DNA of 64,000 nt from Escherichia phage vB_EcoM_G53. Where the stretch lies: the sequence record MK327943.1; one strand, 5' to 3'. The notes under the pieces are model-generated. The model saw nothing but the letters and a program-made list of their open reading frames with translations. It was not told the origin of the DNA and made no database searches. This document shows positions 3,765 to 42,007 of this stretch, piece after piece; position 1 is the first letter of the stretch; the number at the start of each line of letters is the position of its first letter. Both the position numbers and the translations under genes were made by a program.

Positions 3765-4004
3765 TTAAATTTCACGACATGCGATATTATATTCATCCCA
3801 GAGGTCATCATGTGAAGCCTCTACCAATGGAACGATTGTACCGTTTATGTCTTCATTATAAGGGCAAATTGTACAGTGCGCATCTTCGAATCGGATGCCT
3901 TTGTGTTCAGATTTTTTATAACGCATATCGAATATCTTTGCAAACTTTTCACGAGTAATGGTTTTACCAACCACTTTGGTTCCGATACTTTCGTAATAAA
4001 TCAT
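3765..4004 (-). CDS. hypothetical protein (79 aa), Cys/His-containing
   Basis: ORF track 3765..4016; ATG 4004 has GGAG 8 nt upstream while ATG 4016 has no SD; contains HCTICPYNED. Confidence 0.5.
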   Translation of the reverse strand: MIYYESIGTKVVGKTITREKFAKIFDMRYKKSEHKGIRFEDAHCTICPYNEDINGTIVPLVEASHDDLWDEYNIACREI

Positions 4005-4023
4005 TGTGGACTCCATTTGTTTT

Positions 4024-4061
4024 GATAGGACTACTATAACATAGCCCTATCTTGTTGTAAA
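4024..4061 (-). promoter_or_regulatory. early promoter (PeSL-type)
   Basis: Minus strand TTTACA (4056-4061) - 17 bp - TATAGT (4033-4038); inverted repeat ATAGGACT / AGCCCTAT brackets the -10. Confidence 0.65.
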
Positions 4062-7805: not shown

Positions 7806-8432
7806 TTATTTACGGGTTTTTGCATACTGAGCAGCGTCAGCAGCCAAACGACCTGCTTGTCGAAGTTTTTCTTTAATCTCATCATGAAGTGGTTGAGTAT
7901 ACTTCAAACCTTCGATAGTCAAATAAAGACGATAAAGGTCTGGGGTATCAAGGTTGTTGATATGTTGGCCATTACGAAGAATATTGAATTCACGAACGAG
8001 TGAAGACGTATCAGATTCAATATCACGAACAAGCGAAGATAGTTGTTTATATTTTTTTTCCAGGCTAGAAGTATCAAACTTAAGAGCAGGAGCTTTAGGA
8101 GTTGCTTTTACTTCCGGCTTAGGCTCAGGTTTTGCTACTGCTTTAGGGGTCGCAGGTTTAGGAGTGGTAGGAGCAGGTTTCACTTTAGGCGAACCAGATT
8201 TAGCAGAAACACCACCACTAACAATATCTTTGAATGCTTTAGAAGCTCTGTAATATTCTTTTTGGCTGGAAGTGTCGATACCGTACATGGCTTGAACGTT
8301 TTTGAAAAACTCTGTACTAGTTTTTGTACCAGAAATAGCATCGTAAGCAGCTTGCCATTTCTCTTTTGTCATACGTACACCGGCTTCGGTGATTACTTCC
8401 GTTTCGGCTAAAAATTCATTAAAAGTATACAT
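7806..8432 (-). CDS. internal-protein-like capsid cargo candidate (208 aa) with capsid-targeting N-terminus and Pro/Lys-rich linker
   Basis: N-terminus MYTFNEFLAETE resembles the T4 internal-protein targeting sequence MKTYQEFIAE (prohead protease cuts after the LxE motif); low-complexity KPAPTTPKPATPKAVAKPEPKPEVKATPKAP; late promoter TATAAATA 35 nt upstream. Confidence 0.6.
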   Translation of the reverse strand: MYTFNEFLAETEVITEAGVRMTKEKWQAAYDAISGTKTSTEFFKNVQAMYGIDTSSQKEYYRASKAFKDIVSGGVSAKSGSPKVKPAPTTPKPATPKAVAKPEPKPEVKATPKAPALKFDTSSLEKKYKQLSSLVRDIESDTSSLVREFNILRNGQHINNLDTPDLYRLYLTIEGLKYTQPLHDEIKEKLRQAGRLAADAAQYAKTRK

Positions 8433-8467
8433 TGATGGTCCTTAGAAAGTAGGTTTATTGTTTACTA

Positions 8468-8475
8468 TATTTATA
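8468..8475 (-). promoter_or_regulatory. late promoter (TATAAATA) for the internal-protein-like gene
   Basis: Exact TATAAATA on the minus strand about 35 nt upstream of ATG 8432, immediately after the terminator at 8477-8505. Confidence 0.55.
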
Positions 8476-8476
8476 C

Positions 8477-8505
8477 AAAAAAGCCCCGACCTTTCGGAAG
8501 GGGCT
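8477..8505 (-). terminator. rho-independent terminator ending the tRNA/stable-RNA early transcript
   Basis: AGCCCC...GGGGCT stem (imperfect extension, UUCC-type loop) followed by UUUUUU on the minus strand. Confidence 0.7.
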
Positions 8506-8519
8506 ATATACCTTGTCGG

Positions 8520-8800
8520 GGTCCCACCTGCTAAGGCAAGTGTTTGTACGAAACGCCGGGATTCGAACCCGGTTATTAAGCAGTTGACGCTACTCAATAT
8601 TTTTAAAAGGCCATATCTCGACCATATCCGAACGTTCCGTCAAAAACGCTACTCGGCTTACGACAAAGATATTTCCTCGAATCGATAATTCTGTGCGCCG
8701 TTTCTGCTGTGATGTAAGGGGATATTAACAAATCGTAAAGATTTATTAAGACCAGTCCTTACTCAGGGAACATCAGTCCGACGTCTTGCCGGTAGCGACC
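8520..8800 (-). ncRNA. putative stable small RNA(s) with a tRNA-like 3' domain (comparable to T4 species 1/2 RNAs); boundaries approximate
   Basis: About 300 nt non-coding between CDS end 8808 and the terminator; minus strand has a canonical T-arm CCGGGTTCGAATCCCGG plus acceptor-like 3' strand but no complete cloverleaf. Confidence 0.3.
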
Positions 8801-8807
8801 CGGCTTC

Positions 8808-9152
8808 TTATTTTGGCATATCGTCAATTTGCTCTCGACGCCGACGCCATAGATTAATCGCTTCATAGGCACATTCTGCGTTTGGTATATGACGGCAATA
8901 ATATAATGATTCGCGTTTCTGGAACCGATGTTGCAACGGGATTTCGTTTAAAAGGTCTTTACGGTCAAAGTATTCAAAACTAGTTAACCCAGAACGGTTT
9001 TTAAGAAACTTCCAATGTCCGAATTCATTTTGAAAATAAACATAATCAGCATGCTGATACAGCGAATTAATTAACCTATCGGAAATAACTGTTTCACGTT
9101 CGTTAAAATAAAACGTTAAGTCATGAACTACCAGATAAATATTGCCTTTCAT
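8808..9152 (-). CDS. hypothetical protein (114 aa) immediately downstream of the tRNA genes
   Basis: ORF track 8808..9200 would overlap the tRNA; ATG 9152 preceded by GAGGAAAAT is used instead. Confidence 0.5.
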   Translation of the reverse strand: MKGNIYLVVHDLTFYFNERETVISDRLINSLYQHADYVYFQNEFGHWKFLKNRSGLTSFEYFDRKDLLNEIPLQHRFQKRESLYYCRHIPNAECAYEAINLWRRRREQIDDMPK

Positions 9153-9170
9153 ATTTTCCTCACTTGAAGT

Positions 9171-9247
<77 letters not shown>

Positions 9248-9253
9248 AATATA

Positions 9254-9327
9254 TGACCCAGACCAGATTCGAACTGGTAACCTTTCCCTTATGAGGGGAC
9301 TGCTGCTAACCATTGAGCTACAGGGCC
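9254..9327 (-). tRNA. tRNA with CAU anticodon (Met, or Ile with modified C34 as in the T4 tRNA-Ile)
   Basis: Manual fold: acceptor GGCCCTG/CTGGGTC (one mismatch), anticodon loop CTCATAA, T-arm ACCAG-TTCGAAT-CTGGT; D-arm slightly atypical. Confidence 0.65.
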
Positions 9328-9406
9328 TAAATAACTTTCTATTATGAAAGGCACTTTAGAGCACCTTTGGTAATAGAGGGTATGAATTAATAATAACACA
9401 TAATTC

Positions 9407-9922
9407 TTAAAGCAAATCAATCATTTTAACAGTCGGCAAAACGATTTCTTCTTCAATATAAGCAAATTCAACACATTCAACTACGCGCAAGAAATCATAA
9501 TCATAATATTCAGAAGCATGGCCAAGAATATCAATGAGACCTTCTGATACTAAATATCCATTCTCATGGAACAGGTCAAATACACGCGATTCGTCTTCTT
9601 CAGATTTATTACCAAGGTCGACTTCAATATCAAAGACCTTTTTAATGAATTCTGGATAAAGCTGGTCTGAGAACAATCCTTCAACCAAGTATTCATAGAT
9701 TAAAAGCGAACAATCACTGAATAGTGTATTACCACAGTAACGTTCAGCTTTAGTGCTGGAATGACGGCTCTTAAATTTCTTCAAAAGATATTTAAACTGT
9801 TGGAGCTCATGCTCTTCCACACCAAATAATGTTTTGGTTTTATAGTTGTCGCCGTCATTTTCCCAAGTAGTGACATCAATTACGTAACCCTTAGGAATTG
9901 TACTGCCTAAACAAATATTCAT
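9407..9922 (-). CDS. hypothetical protein (171 aa)
   Basis: ATG 9922 preceded by GGTGAG; last ORF of the early operon before the tRNAs. Confidence 0.55.
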   Translation of the reverse strand: MNICLGSTIPKGYVIDVTTWENDGDNYKTKTLFGVEEHELQQFKYLLKKFKSRHSSTKAERYCGNTLFSDCSLLIYEYLVEGLFSDQLYPEFIKKVFDIEVDLGNKSEEDESRVFDLFHENGYLVSEGLIDILGHASEYYDYDFLRVVECVEFAYIEEEIVLPTVKMIDLL

Positions 9923-9926
9923 TTAC

Positions 9927-10217
9927 TCACCGTACCATATTAATGTAATTATATTCAATGCAACATAATTTCAAAGGATTCTTGAAAATATCATATTCAA
10001 GAGGACCTTTTTCTGTTTCAATAAAGAAATCAAAGTTAACTGTGTTAAATTTATCGTCTTCACAGAGTAATTTAACTTGCGAAGATGAACGGTCGATATA
10101 AACCTTTTCAACCTCAAAGTTAGTCAGAATACCGTAGTCGTCGACTAGTGCTTTAGCTGCACGTTGATCGCTTTCATATCCATTCTCAACGGATTTTACC
10201 TTAGCATAAAGAATCAT
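9927..10217 (-). CDS. hypothetical protein (96 aa)
   Basis: ATG 10217 preceded by GGTGGAA; ATGA overlap with upstream gene. Confidence 0.55.
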   Translation of the reverse strand: MILYAKVKSVENGYESDQRAAKALVDDYGILTNFEVEKVYIDRSSSQVKLLCEDDKFNTVNFDFFIETEKGPLEYDIFKNPLKLCCIEYNYINMVR

Positions 10218-10576
10218 GAATGTTCCACCATTTCAAAGGTATGAGCATCAACAATATGATACCAGTCAAAATTTTCTTCTGCGTTTTTATAAATTTCGCG
10301 AAGAGCCTCAACAGTTTTTCCTGTAGCAACAAGGTCGTCAATACCACCAAGAGGATAACAGTCATAACCAGCAAACAGAAGGAAATTAATAGTTTCTGTA
10401 GGTTCTGGATGCAGAACTCCGTTATCGTCTACCACTTCAAAGAAAGTGTAAGAAGGAGTACAAGTTTTAATCCAGGCCCATGCTTGAGCTGCTGAATCAA
10501 ACGGATTACGGAATAAACGACAATCTGGGTCTTTAGAAGGATTTGCTTCAAAATCCGCATATATGTGATATTTCAT
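10214..10576 (-). CDS. hypothetical protein (120 aa)
   Basis: ORF track 10214..10594; start placed at ATG 10576 (MKYHIY) preceded by AAGGTGAG. Confidence 0.55.
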   Translation of the reverse strand: MKYHIYADFEANPSKDPDCRLFRNPFDSAAQAWAWIKTCTPSYTFFEVVDDNGVLHPEPTETINFLLFAGYDCYPLGGIDDLVATGKTVEALREIYKNAEENFDWYHIVDAHTFEMVEHS

Positions 10577-10577
10577 T

Positions 10578-10763
10578 TTACTCACCTTTTGCAATTTTAT
10601 CCATAACGATAGCGATTAAGCCGATTAGAAATGCTACTACCAATGAGATAGAATTTTCTGTTGTTGACAGTAGTCCACAAATGAATCCTACAAACATCGA
10701 AAAACTAAAAGCCATTGAAGCAATTACTACAGCAACATTACGAATCAGTTCAGCGCGTTTCAT
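10578..10763 (-). CDS. small membrane protein (61 aa)
   Basis: ORF track 10578..10784; ATG 10763 preceded by GGAG; one long hydrophobic segment. Confidence 0.5.
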   Translation of the reverse strand: MKRAELIRNVAVVIASMAFSFSMFVGFICGLLSTTENSISLVVAFLIGLIAIVMDKIAKGE

Positions 10764-10791
10764 TTTATTTCTCCATTTACTCATTTGATTT

Positions 10792-10829
10792 GATAGGACT
10801 ACTATAACATAGTCCTATCATCATGTAAA
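10792..10829 (-). promoter_or_regulatory. early promoter (PeSL-type)
   Basis: Minus strand TTTACA (10824-10829) - 17 bp - TATAGT (10801-10806); perfect 8-bp inverted repeat ATAGGACT / AGTCCTAT brackets the -10. Confidence 0.65.
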
Positions 10830-10832
10830 CTA

Positions 10833-11096
10833 TTAAATTCCAGCTTCGCGTTTAACATAATCGACATAAGCTTGGATAGCTTTCTTGCTGGTAATTTTTA
10901 CCTGGCCACGACCATTGCCTTCTTTAGAGTTTTTCTTAACAACTACATTACCATCTTTAACACCCCATACATGGACATAAGTACCGATGTTTCGGTCGTA
11001 GAACATTGCATGGTCGTTGTTGTAAGAGAATGATTCGTAGTTCTCCGACAGAGTAGAAGATTGAGATTCAGCGATAAATTCTTTATACGTTTTCAT
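10833..11096 (-). CDS. internal-protein-like capsid cargo candidate (87 aa)
   Basis: N-terminus MKTYKEFIAES matches the T4 internal-protein capsid-targeting sequence; own PeSL promoter. Confidence 0.6.
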   Translation of the reverse strand: MKTYKEFIAESQSSTLSENYESFSYNNDHAMFYDRNIGTYVHVWGVKDGNVVVKKNSKEGNGRGQVKITSKKAIQAYVDYVKREAGI

Positions 11097-11122
11097 TTGT
11101 TTTTCCGTTTGGTTGTTGATTT

Positions 11123-11160
11123 GATAGGACTACTATAACATAGTCCTATCTGCATGTAAA
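11123..11160 (-). promoter_or_regulatory. early promoter (PeSL-type)
   Basis: Minus strand TTTACA (11155-11160) - 17 bp - TATAGT (11132-11137); same 26-bp palindrome as at 10792. Confidence 0.65.
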
Positions 11161-11164
11161 CTAC

Positions 11165-11452
11165 TTACAGAAGAGTTTTTGCAATAATTTTAAGCTGAGC
11201 TACAGAAATATGCTTAGCTTTAAACAGTGCGGTCTCTTCAGCCGGAGAGATAACAATAGTAGCGCCATCTTTCTTAGCAGACCATCCATCCCCTAAGTAA
11301 ACAGTACCTTTTACTTCTTCGCCATCAACCAGACTAATCATCGGTTTACCCTCACGTCCTTTATTTGCTTTAATAACTTCGGAAGTAAGGGTTGCTTCGG
11401 TCAGAGTAGAAACGTTAGCAACAGGTGATATAAATTCTTTATAGGTTTTCAT
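11165..11452 (-). CDS. internal-protein-like capsid cargo candidate (95 aa), at the position T4 ipI occupies next to 57B
   Basis: N-terminus MKTYKEFIS...LTEA resembles the capsid-targeting sequence; SD AAGGAAAT; orthology to ipI not established. Confidence 0.6.
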   Translation of the reverse strand: MKTYKEFISPVANVSTLTEATLTSEVIKANKGREGKPMISLVDGEEVKGTVYLGDGWSAKKDGATIVISPAEETALFKAKHISVAQLKIIAKTLL

Positions 11453-11480
11453 TTTATTTCCTTGAGGTTGTTTATTTGAT

Positions 11481-11515
11481 AGGATGATAGTAACACACCA
11501 TCATCCTTATGTAAA
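11481..11515 (-). promoter_or_regulatory. early promoter (PeSL-type)
   Basis: Minus strand TTTACA (11510-11515) - 17 bp - TACTAT (11487-11492); inverted repeat AGGATGAT / ATCATCCT brackets the -10. Confidence 0.65.
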
Positions 11516-11529
11516 CTGTTTTGTGAAAA

Positions 11530-12215
<686 letters not shown>

Positions 12216-12219
12216 TTTA

Positions 12220-12954
12220 TTACCTTAAGATTGTTTCAATTTTAGAATAAAGCTCTTCTAAAGAGCCGTCGTTTGTAATAACTAAATCGCCTTCTTCAAT
12301 AGGCAACCCAGCTTCTGTAATATGTTTATCGGTGGATTCCGTACCAGAGCGAACCACATGAATAACTGTAGCACCCATCGCTCTAGCGGTTTCCATTTCA
12401 TGGACTTGGCGTGTATCGGTTACAACATAGTAATCGAAATCACTTCCAATATAATCCATATAGTTTAATGCAAAAAGCTTAACCCAATACATACGGTCAA
12501 ATAAATTAACGACAACATCCGTACCGAGGGCTTGCATAAGACGGCGGATTGACCATGTGTCGTTGATATTATTTATAGCTTCACGCAGGGCTTCATATGG
12601 TTTAATATCTAGATACGAATATCCACCTTCTAACGATGATAATACTTTAACATTATTAATCGGTAAATATTGACTTTGCAAATAAATTAGCGCTTCTTCC
12701 AATAATTCAATAACATCCAACTTATTGAGATTTAATGGTGTTTCACGGTCGTATCCAATGCCTTCAAAGTATTCGTATTTCAACTCTGTGAATACATCAG
12801 GATTTTCAGCATGCCTACGTCCCCAGGCTATTGCTAGAGCGTCTTTAATTGGATATGCTAATTGGTATTTTACGGATTTAAAGTTTGAATTGATGTAATC
12901 AGCAGTGGTGTCTTTACCACTACGTTTGATGCCACTTAAAAAGATTAGCTCCAT
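12220..12954 (-). CDS. 1: deoxynucleoside monophosphate kinase (gp1)
   Basis: 244 aa; N-terminal P-loop FLSGIKRSGKDT; close to my recollection of T4 gp1. Confidence 0.9.
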   Translation of the reverse strand: MELIFLSGIKRSGKDTTADYINSNFKSVKYQLAYPIKDALAIAWGRRHAENPDVFTELKYEYFEGIGYDRETPLNLNKLDVIELLEEALIYLQSQYLPINNVKVLSSLEGGYSYLDIKPYEALREAINNINDTWSIRRLMQALGTDVVVNLFDRMYWVKLFALNYMDYIGSDFDYYVVTDTRQVHEMETARAMGATVIHVVRSGTESTDKHITEAGLPIEEGDLVITNDGSLEELYSKIETILR

Positions 12955-40520: not shown

Positions 40521-41161
40521 TGAATAAACCCGAGTTACTTATTGAAACTTGGGGTCAACCCGGTGAGATTATTGATGGCGTTCCAATGTTGGAATCTCAT
40601 GATGGAAAAGATTCTGGCTTAAAACCAGGGCTTTATATAGAAGGTATTTTTCTTCAGGCAGAGGTTGTTAACCGAAATAAACGTTTATATCCTAAACGCG
40701 TTTTGGAAAAAGCAGTAAGTGACTATATTAAAGAACAAGTCGCAACCAAACAAGCCCTTGGAGAATTAAACCATCCACCTCGTGCAAATGTTGACCCTAT
40801 GCAAGCCGCTATCATTATTGAAGATATGTGGTGGAAAGGAAACGATGTATATGGACGTGCTAGAATTATTGAAGGCGACCATGGTCCCGGCGATAAATTA
40901 GCTGCTAATATACGAGCTGGTTGGATTCCAGGTGTTTCCTCTCGTGGTCTTGGTTCTTTAACCGACACCAATAAAGGGTACCGTATCGTGAACGAAGGAT
41001 TTAAATTAACCGTCGGCGTAGATGCCGTATGGGGACCTTCTGCTCCAGATGCTTGGGTTACTCCTAAACAAATATCAGAATCAGAAAATTCGGTGGAAAC
41101 CACCAAAAACAGTGCTGATGAAGCATTTAAAGCTCTCGCAGAGAGTTTAAAAACATTATAA
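40520..41161 (+). CDS. 21: prohead core protease gp21
   Basis: 213 aa, T4 size and order. Confidence 0.9.
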   Translation: MNKPELLIETWGQPGEIIDGVPMLESHDGKDSGLKPGLYIEGIFLQAEVVNRNKRLYPKRVLEKAVSDYIKEQVATKQALGELNHPPRANVDPMQAAIIIEDMWWKGNDVYGRARIIEGDHGPGDKLAANIRAGWIPGVSSRGLGSLTDTNKGYRIVNEGFKLTVGVDAVWGPSAPDAWVTPKQISESENSVETTKNSADEAFKALAESLKTL

Positions 41162-41194: not shown

Positions 41195-42007
41195 ATGATC
41201 AAAGAACAACTTTTGAAAGAAGCTCAGAACATCGAGACTTCAGTTGCTCTTAATAGTGTTTTCGAATCAGTAGAACTGTCTCCGGACGTTAAAGCTAATT
41301 TCAGCACTGTATTCGAAGCCACCGTTAAGCAGGAAGCAGTCAAACTGGCTGAATCTCATATCAAAGCCATCGCCGAAAAAGCCGAAGAAGAAGTTGAAAA
41401 GGCTAAAGAAGATGCTGAAGAGAAAGCTGATAAAAAATTGGCTGAACAAGCTTCTAAATTCCTAGACCATCTTGCAAAAGAATGGCTCGCAGAAAACCAA
41501 ATCGCAGTTGATAAAGGCATTAAAGCTGATTTGTTCGAATCCATGCTTGGTGGTCTGAAAGAACTGTTTGTTGAACATAACGTTGTTGTTCCAGAAGAAT
41601 CTGTAGATGTTGTAGCAGAAATGGAAGAAGAGCTGGCCGAACATAAAGAAGAAACCGCTCGTTTGTTCGAAGAAGTTACCAAACGTGATGCATATATCAA
41701 TTACGTTCAGCGTGAAACCGCTATTAATGAAAGCGTAAAAGACCTGACTGAATCTCAGAAAGAAAAAGTTATTGGCCTGGTTGAAGGTATGGATTATTCT
41801 GACGCATTTGGTACTAAGTTAACTGCTATTGTAGAAATGGTTAAAGGTTCTACTAAAGAAGAAGCCGCTATTACCGAAAGTATAAATACAGTTGACAATG
41901 ACGCTGCCGGTCTTAATTTTGTTGCCGAAGCAGTTGACACTACCACAACTCAGGTAGAACAGAATTCTAATGTAAGTTTATATGCGAAAGTCGCATCTCG
42001 TTTCTAA
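41195..42007 (+). CDS. 22: prohead core scaffold protein gp22
   Basis: 270 aa, Glu/Lys/Ala-rich; T4 size and order. Confidence 0.9.
   Translation: MIKEQLLKEAQNIETSVALNSVFESVELSPDVKANFSTVFEATVKQEAVKLAESHIKAIAEKAEEEVEKAKEDAEEKADKKLAEQASKFLDHLAKEWLAENQIAVDKGIKADLFESMLGGLKELFVEHNVVVPEESVDVVAEMEEELAEHKEETARLFEEVTKRDAYINYVQRETAINESVKDLTESQKEKVIGLVEGMDYSDAFGTKLTAIVEMVKGSTKEEAAITESINTVDNDAAGLNFVAEAVDTTTTQVEQNSNVSLYAKVASRF

Follow-up and report, generated by a model that had tools for sequence, protein, structure and literature searches.

A candidate second injected-protein cassette beside ipI in the Mosigvirus phage vB_EcoM_G53

Two small neighbouring genes in Escherichia phage vB_EcoM_G53 (sequence record MK327943.1) are analyzed here within a stretch of 64,000 nt, referred to below as the window. 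The genes are two open reading frames (ORFs), ORF1 at 10833–11096 and ORF2 at 11165–11452, both on the minus strand. Judged by its sequence, ORF2 is the gene for internal protein I (IPI), a known injected protein of T4-like phages. ORF1 is uncharacterised, and the N-terminus of its predicted product resembles that of the same class, the internal proteins (Ips). The explanation that best fits the locus as a whole, and one that we consider probable, is that it is an ipI hotspot in which ORF2 encodes IPI and ORF1 is a second cassette for an injected internal protein. The advance is a modest one: one of the two genes is already known, and the other would be a new addition to a known class of injected proteins.

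The source phage is T4-like and belongs to the genus Mosigvirus (the RB69 group). The region 10500–12300 is 98.5–98.7% identical to the corresponding DNA of Escherichia phages NicPhage and 55, and it has matches in 260 phage records. The genes of the locus all lie on the minus strand, and their order in the direction of transcription is gene 1 (deoxynucleoside monophosphate kinase), 57A, 57B, ORF2, ORF1, trna.4, trna.3, trna.2 and so on. That is, the locus is the T4 57B-ipI-trna.4 region, a known variable internal-protein hotspot. An initial annotation, made from the letters of the window, had given the coordinates of the two ORFs exactly, stop codons included (87 and 95 amino acids (aa)), and had left their strand unstated.

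ORF2 and the leader of ORF1

ORF2 is the ortholog of ipI and encodes an internal protein I precursor of 95 aa. It matches the Pfam profile PF11634 (IPI_T4) with E=1.3e-50 and 169.7 bits, against a cut-off of 25, and its residues 20–95 cover profile positions 1–76 of 76. The protein falls in PHROG 4363, "internal virion protein", and is 88.4% identical to T4 IpI (AF158101) across 95 residues. PDB 2JUB, the solved structure of the 76-aa mature IPI*, aligns over its entire length with residues 20–95, with 72 of 76 positions identical, and RB69 IPI has exactly the same mature sequence as ORF2. The position is syntenic with that of T4 ipI, downstream of 57B and upstream of trna.4.

Because 2JUB aligns from residue 20, the propeptide is placed as ending at L-T-E19, a L/I-X-E site for the prohead protease gp21. 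Residues 1–19, MKTYKEFISPVANVSTLTE, encoded by 11396–11452 (minus strand), are then the propeptide, or capsid-targeting sequence, and 11168–11395 (minus strand) encodes the 76-aa IPI*. ORF2 resembles T4 and RB69 IPI in its length of 95 aa, in a 19-residue propeptide ending in L/I-T-E, and in its site between 57B and trna.4. It differs from T4 IPI in the propeptide, which is MKTFKEFTSTTTPVSTITE in T4, and in four mature-region substitutions, the same ones as reported for RB69 (PMC6024577). RB69 IPI, with these four residues different from T4, prevents restriction by GmrSD enzymes (PMC6024577). More generally, IPI is an injected inhibitor of GmrSD, a type IV restriction system (PMC3012670; PMC6024577; PMC12373910).

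By these comparisons ORF2 is IPI, the founding member of the Ip class, whose function and processing site are already published; its mechanism, inhibition of GmrSD after injection, is assigned by homology to a protein that has been studied by experiment. The initial annotation had presented both ORFs as further internal-protein candidates. Given the Pfam, 2JUB and RB69 matches, that description does not suit ORF2, which is canonical IPI, and it holds only for ORF1. The events proposed for ORF2 are as follows. The protein would be made with its 19-residue capsid-targeting propeptide and would co-assemble into the prohead core, where gp21 would trim it after L-T-E19 to the 76-residue IPI*. The mature protein would be packaged with the DNA, injected, and would block a type IV restriction endonuclease of the GmrSD type.

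A side observation concerns the RB69 record (locus L044, 8450–8749), in which the annotated ipI begins 4 codons further upstream (MEPKMKTYKEF...). Comparison with T4 and with the window points to the leader-proximal ATG as the likely true start.

ORF1 encodes an 87-aa precursor that belongs to phrog_13302 (function unknown) and has no match in Pfam or NCBIfam. By tblastn, the full-length protein is found in 28 phage records only, all Mosigvirus, at 95–100% identity, and every one of them carries the label "hypothetical"; phages 55, JK45, ST0 and WFbE185 are among the Mosigvirus phages with ORF1. Its N-terminus, MKTYKEFIAESQSSTLSE, has in common with that of ORF2 the residues MKTYKEFI and, later, STL(S/T)E. 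A BLASTP alignment of the two proteins is limited to residues 1–19, of which 12 are identical. The match to other T4 leaders is as follows. Residues 1–10 of ORF1, MKTYKEFIAE, agree at nine of ten positions with the MKTYQEFIAE of T4 IpII and IpIII, the sole change being K5 for Q5, and Y4, F7, I8 and E10 are all kept. The first 10 residues of IPIII are enough for capsid incorporation; in the T4 leader, residues 4 and 7 govern targeting, residues 8 and 10 govern processing, and the gp21 motif is L/I-X-E (PMC9026906). ORF1 has two such motifs, I-A-E10 and L-S-E18, and no L/I/V-x-E site occurs in the remaining 69 residues. Its leader is composite, that is, an IpII/IpIII-type MKTYKEFIAE followed by an IPI-like STLSE.

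The predicted propeptide of ORF1 comprises residues 1–18 (11043–11096, minus strand), MKTYKEFIAE and then SQSSTLSE, each part ending in a candidate cleavage motif. This assignment draws on the IpII/IpIII leader match and on the homology boundary described below. The predicted mature domain, of 69 aa and 7.9 kDa with an isoelectric point (pI) of 9.4, is encoded by 10836–11042 (minus strand), and is represented by a structural model and by models of family members. The internal-protein signature that the initial annotation had noticed on both ORFs is, in both, a capsid-targeting N-terminus. ORF1 is like T4 IpII, IpIII and the wider T-even Ip set in this sequence, in its L/I-x-E motif and in being a small basic protein, as it is in its location at one of the two ip hotspots and in its flanking promoter/stem-loop repeats. 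It differs from that set in that its body falls outside the 15 other body families recovered at the slot and has leaderless homologs elsewhere in phage genomes.

The pattern of substitution in ORF1 is conservative. The L-x-E18 motif is retained while x varies, being S in the window and T in phage DCP548 and in family member P0001. Synonymous and nonsynonymous differences number 7 and 0 against phage 55 and 7 and 1 against DCP548, with ranges of 4–7 and 0–1 over three relatives. The single replacement among these relatives, S17T, keeps L-x-E. Against a distant leaderless homolog, the ratio of nonsynonymous to synonymous substitution rates (dN/dS) is 0.24. ORF1 is a real gene under purifying selection. 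Small ORF size, and nothing more, would speak for the notion that the ORFs or their shared N-terminus are chance features, non-genes. We give this notion practically no credence: it is refuted by the Pfam and PDB matches of ORF2 and by the purifying selection on ORF1, whose dN/dS is far below 1, which occurs in 28 genomes and for which a confident fold is predicted.

The window also encodes the machinery on which packaging and processing would depend. The gene for gp21, the protease that would remove the leaders, lies at 40586–41152 (plus strand; tblastn, 88% identity to T4 gp21'), and that for the scaffold core protein gp22 at 41195–42004 (plus strand; tblastn, 77% identity to T4 gp22). Internal proteins co-assemble with the gp22 core (PMC9026906). 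Because of the leader match, the L/I-x-E motifs, the presence of gp21 and gp22 and the pattern of selection, we think it likely that the ORF1 product is packaged and processed.

The ORF1 body, its relatives and the cassette borders

Downstream of the leader, ORF1 and ORF2 part company. The initial annotation had called their bodies unrelated, and profile-profile comparison of the two with hhalign agrees, giving a probability of 0.06%, a value that rules out distant homology between the ORF1 body and IPI*.

Relatives of the ORF1 body are found in other phages, where they are leaderless. By tblastn, residues 15–82 are 63% identical to a 73-residue ORF, beginning MKTLNINSFFY, in seven Dhakavirus-type records (the IME08/IME341 group). 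In all seven this homolog lies between topoisomerase gene 52 and motA (in IME341, locus L004, at 2495–2716). An early promoter of its own precedes it, and a hairpin of the ...CCTATCAAA type, as at the window locus, follows downstream. The ORF1 body thus appears to travel in IME341, at a different genomic locus, as a cassette of the PeSL type, the PeSL being a composite of an early promoter and an overlapping stem-loop. An exhaustive HMMER search of 1.8 billion representatives returned 6 at E<=1e-3; three further small leaderless proteins came from it. One of these, P0004, shares its phage contig with a DnaB-like helicase and a Rv2179c-like exonuclease, and another, P0006, adjoins a homolog of T4 cef. 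P0003 was disregarded as a family member, being a 3562-aa repeat protein whose match is a 26-residue Lys/Gly-rich stretch. A word-indexed search of 5.8 billion proteins gave 2 ORF1 clusters only.

The family alignment starts at residue 19, directly after L-S-E18. The simplest reading would be that a pre-existing early gene acquired the 18-residue leader in place of its first few residues. Because the leaderless homologs, with their own early promoters, stand in early or replication regions (IME341, P0004, P0006), it is suggested that the domain works in the host cytoplasm and not as a structural component of the head.

The AlphaFold2 (AF2) model of the body, with a mean predicted local confidence (pLDDT) of 91.9, has five β-strands and a C-terminal helix. 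A run with 3 sequences gave a pLDDT of 51 and was unusable; the run with 5 sequences (pLDDT 92) was kept. BFVD models of family members agree with it, with template-modelling (TM) scores of 0.99 and 0.93. The family profile returned only noise when compared with PDB sequences (E of at least 0.19), and Foldseek found no significant match of the body model in the PDB. The body may resemble the small anti-CRISPR protein AcrIF13 (PDB 7FI4), with which it has 7% sequence identity. The fold is simple and is seen in polo-box, LolA-like and sulfatase subdomains as well, and membership of ORF1 is not claimed. The initial annotation had proposed a homology check of the mature parts against known anti-restriction proteins. 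That check identifies ORF2 as IPI and leaves ORF1 with neither a sequence link nor a confident fold link to such a protein.

ORF1 sits on a 331-bp cassette between two PeSLs. The locus has three copies of this 48-nt promoter/stem-loop element, all read on the minus strand. The copy upstream of ipI (11471–11518) consists of the early promoter TTTACA-N17-TACTAT and a hairpin, and is conserved in T4, Mizar, AV117 and DCP548. The copy between ipI and ORF1 (11116–11163), located by repeat, promoter and hairpin scans, consists of TTTACA-N17-TATAGT and an 11–12 bp hairpin and forms the left cassette boundary. The copy downstream of ORF1 and upstream of the trna.4 homolog (10785–10832), 96% identical to the preceding one, forms the right boundary. 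The TATAGT and TACTAT forms agree with the sigma-70 consensus at 10 or 9 of 12 positions, with TG before each −10 hexamer. Each ORF has an early promoter of the PeSL type to itself, 11471–11518 for ORF2 and 11116–11163 for ORF1, as the initial annotation had proposed. The T4-type PeSL consensus given for the T4/PST pair is TTTACW-N17-TAYWAT (PMC4122927), from which the window elements depart at a single position of the −10 hexamer.

Each element overlaps a hairpin of 11–12 bp whose folding-energy z-score is −4.0 to −5.2 relative to shuffles. The composite pattern has 5 occurrences in the window, against none in 100 shuffles (0 expected), and all five sites are within the first 12 kb, the variable e-to-57B region. 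A third copy of the ORF1-flanking subtype, differing at 1 of 41 nt, lies at 4021–4061 (minus strand) and precedes an 83-aa ORF (3765–4016). In an Rfam scan of 8300–11700, only two tRNAs reached threshold and the PeSL hairpins matched no family.

PeSL-like elements flanking variable ip genes were reportedly described by Repoila in 1994. They were also described around such genes by Arbiol in 2010 (PMC2839356). The elements here are like the PeSL cassettes of Arbiol 2010 and Comeau 2014 in that an early promoter and an overlapping hairpin form a composite, repeated at the borders of variable ORFs. They also resemble them in lying at insertion, deletion and replacement junctions between close relatives, as seen in alignments with T4, Mizar, AV117, DCP548 and the IMG/VR contig L006. 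They differ in their hairpins, which are rich in AT and lack a following U-run; no terminator-like site was detected there. This is the type described for the T-even IP-associated "analogs" of RB49-type PeSLs (PMC2839356). A second difference is that, at the window locus, leader-coding DNA serves as a junction too.

Among near-identical Mosigvirus genomes, the ORF1 cassette is present, absent or replaced. Between 57B and trna.4, the window has ipI and ORF1. T4 and AV117 have ipI only, and there ipI runs straight to a PeSL of the 10785–10832 type. DCP548 has ORF1 only, and the L006 contig has neither gene. Other genomes have a different partner for ipI: a 102-aa leader-bearing ORF in Mizar, Ip5 in RB14 and, in RB69, a 108-aa ip gene that precedes ipI. 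In DCP548 (locus L040, 618–960), the deletion junction falls inside a leader-coding 30-mer shared by the two genes. In the window this repeat spans, in ORF1, the ribosome-binding site and the first codons of the leader (11074–11103, minus strand) and has its 90% identical direct partner at 11430–11459 in ipI. It follows from this junction that ORF1 of DCP548 is driven by the ipI-type PeSL, and that leader DNA, besides the PeSLs, serves as a recombination site. We propose that PeSL repeats and conserved leader-coding DNA act as homology patches through which cassettes may be gained, lost and swapped between related phages.

The slot holds many other cassettes. In 39 loci anchored on 57B there are 59 leader-bearing ORFs, 0–3 per genome, whose bodies fall into 16 unrelated families, with the ORF1 family among the rarer. 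The diversifying set of injected proteins suggested by the initial annotation is apparent from this count. T-even phages are said, from work by Repoila in 1994 and Comeau in 2007, to have more than 30 variants of internal proteins, including Ip4, Ip5 and others. Arbiol 2010 refers to the ip polymorphism of Repoila 1994 as one that involves PeSL-like elements and over 30 IP variants (PMC2839356; PMC4122927). The variation at the slot is this already described ip polymorphism.

Proposed role of ORF1

We propose that ORF1 is a second, independent cassette, with an 18-residue leader fused to a 69-residue basic domain of β-sheet plus helix. Its product would be packaged, cut after E18 (possibly also after E10) and injected, and it would act in the host cytoplasm upon DNA entry. 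Its most likely role would be to inhibit, stoichiometrically, a single subtype of the host's defence nucleases, as Ip1, Ip2 and Ip3 do. Each of those three inhibits a distinct GmrSD, without cross-protection (PMC12373910). For ORF1 itself, an anti-defence inhibitor role, argued by analogy, is a possibility that we put just short of even. Within that possibility a GmrSD-type enzyme would be the single most likely target, because all three Ips whose targets are known act against distinct GmrSD enzymes.

Packaging would call for late expression. A search directly upstream of the two ip genes found no late promoter for either. The nearest sense-strand one upstream of 57A-57B-ipI-ORF1 is a T4-type late promoter, TATAAATA, inside gene 1 (12570–12577, minus strand); T4 gene 1 has the same motif in the equivalent place. 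We infer that this promoter may drive late expression of the ip genes, for which transcription would have to read through three hairpins.

Several points weigh against an injected, inhibitory ORF1 product. ORF1 is directly preceded by an early-type promoter only, the nearest late one lying 1.5 kb upstream. The residues that follow the candidate cleavage sites are S and N, and T4 Ip proteins have A there. Our literature search found no report of virion proteomics on Mosigvirus phages, and the presence of ORF1 in virions is a prediction. The family is tiny, 6 representatives including P0003 among 1.8 billion, and no member has a known function. Because the AcrIF13 similarity is not reproduced by Foldseek, the modelled fold appears to offer no reliable functional clue. 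Finally, the suggested anti-restriction role is drawn purely by analogy with three unrelated proteins.

The early promoter is what would be expected if ORF1 were an ordinary early cytoplasmic protein, whose leader-like N-terminus arose as a by-product of recombination via shared 5′ DNA and which is not packaged or injected in any meaningful amount. All other family members are leaderless and have early promoters of their own, and the DCP548 junction demonstrates recombination inside leader-coding DNA. Yet nine of the first ten residues of ORF1, all four key ones included, agree with a sequence that has been shown to suffice for the packaging of foreign proteins. Across diverged genomes the leader and the L-x-E motif are conserved, the changes being synonymous or preserving the motif, and the validated IPI has the same promoter arrangement as ORF1. 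We regard the by-product explanation as distinctly unlikely.

A different possibility grants injection and questions the role, that is, ORF1 might fill the head as a basic protein associated with the DNA, serve in host takeover or inhibit a defence other than GmrSD. In its small size and basic character (pI 9.4) the mature protein resembles the classical DNA-associated internal proteins (PMC9026906), it is linked neither by sequence nor by a confident fold to any known anti-restriction protein, and its leaderless relatives stand in replication and early regions. Against this, the Ip proteins whose targets are known, three in number, all inhibit GmrSD (PMC12373910), and presence/absence polymorphism in near-identical phages is typical of accessory genes for host range and counter-defence. 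A pure filler role would, moreover, leave the leaderless, early-expressed homologs unexplained. Such alternative roles seem to us rather unlikely.

Returning to ORF1 as an injected inhibitor, a more specific version may be put forward tentatively, and we hold it possible though doubtful. A pre-existing cytoplasmic, early counter-defence protein may have been recruited into the injected arsenal by way of the 18-residue leader, through recombination at the ip hotspot. If so, the same inhibitor domain would be delivered in two ways, by early transcription in Dhakavirus and other phages and by preloaded injection in some Mosigvirus. The target could then be distinct from those of Ip1–3, for example an enzyme that attacks the arabinosyl-hydroxymethylcytosine DNA of RB69-group phages. 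With the leader-bearing and leaderless forms as a pair, one could then test directly what advantage the injection of an inhibitor has over its expression.

In practical terms, ORF1 would be one more of the injected proteins that together shape which hosts T4-like therapeutic and typing phages can infect. Its leaderless homologs would provide a concrete example of a capsid-targeting leader turning an ordinary early gene into an injected one. Natural near-isogenic phages with ipI only, ORF1 only, both or neither are ready material for host-range comparison.

Neighbouring genes

Upstream of ORF2, 57B (11530–11985, minus strand) encodes the 151-aa Acb1, an anti-CBASS (the antiphage signalling system based on cyclic oligonucleotides) 2H phosphodiesterase. 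The initial annotation had called the gene Acb1-like, and the Pfam match (PF23474, E=1.3e-58) bears this out. Like Acb1 of T4 (gp57B), the protein is matched over its full length, adjoins ipI and has the HxT/HxT tetrad, with HST at residues 43–45 and HIT in TPHITLSY; the role of this catalytic tetrad in Acb1 is known (PMC9117128). Acb1 differs from the two Ip ORFs in that it lacks a capsid-targeting leader and is made after infection. The initial annotation had further grouped the three genes as a compact anti-defense neighbourhood. Acb1 does adjoin ipI; as worded, the claim had already been made by Hobbs et al. in 2022, who pointed out that T4 Acb1 adjoins ipI as an anti-defence island (PMC9117128). 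Neither ORF2 nor the Acb1-ipI neighbourhood adds anything new.

The downstream anchor of the hotspot is conserved. It is the trna.4 homolog (10578–10763, minus strand; phrog_1692), a predicted membrane protein of 61 aa identified from the T4, RB69 and phage 55 annotations. Beyond trna.2, in transcription order, follow an extra ORF and then tRNA-Met and tRNA-Arg. In the phage 55 record, a 94-nt "tRNA-Lys" is annotated at about 8550–8640; ARAGORN and Rfam gave no tRNA at that place in the window.

A 208-aa ORF at 7806–8432 (minus strand; phrog_2280, function unknown) has an N-terminus, MYTFNEFLAE-TEVITE-AG, that resembles a capsid-targeting sequence and contains two L/I-x-E motifs; its central linker is rich in Pro, Ala and Lys. 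Directly upstream of it (8468–8505) are a GC-rich hairpin with a T-run, a T4 late promoter with the same TATAAATA motif as in gene 1 (8468–8475) and a good ribosome-binding site. Because of its N-terminus and the upstream late promoter, this ORF is a candidate late-expressed head-internal protein. Between it and tRNA-Arg (8442–9170, minus strand) is a 130-aa ORF with a TTG start (8808–9200), which relatives annotate as a 114-aa version with an ATG start.

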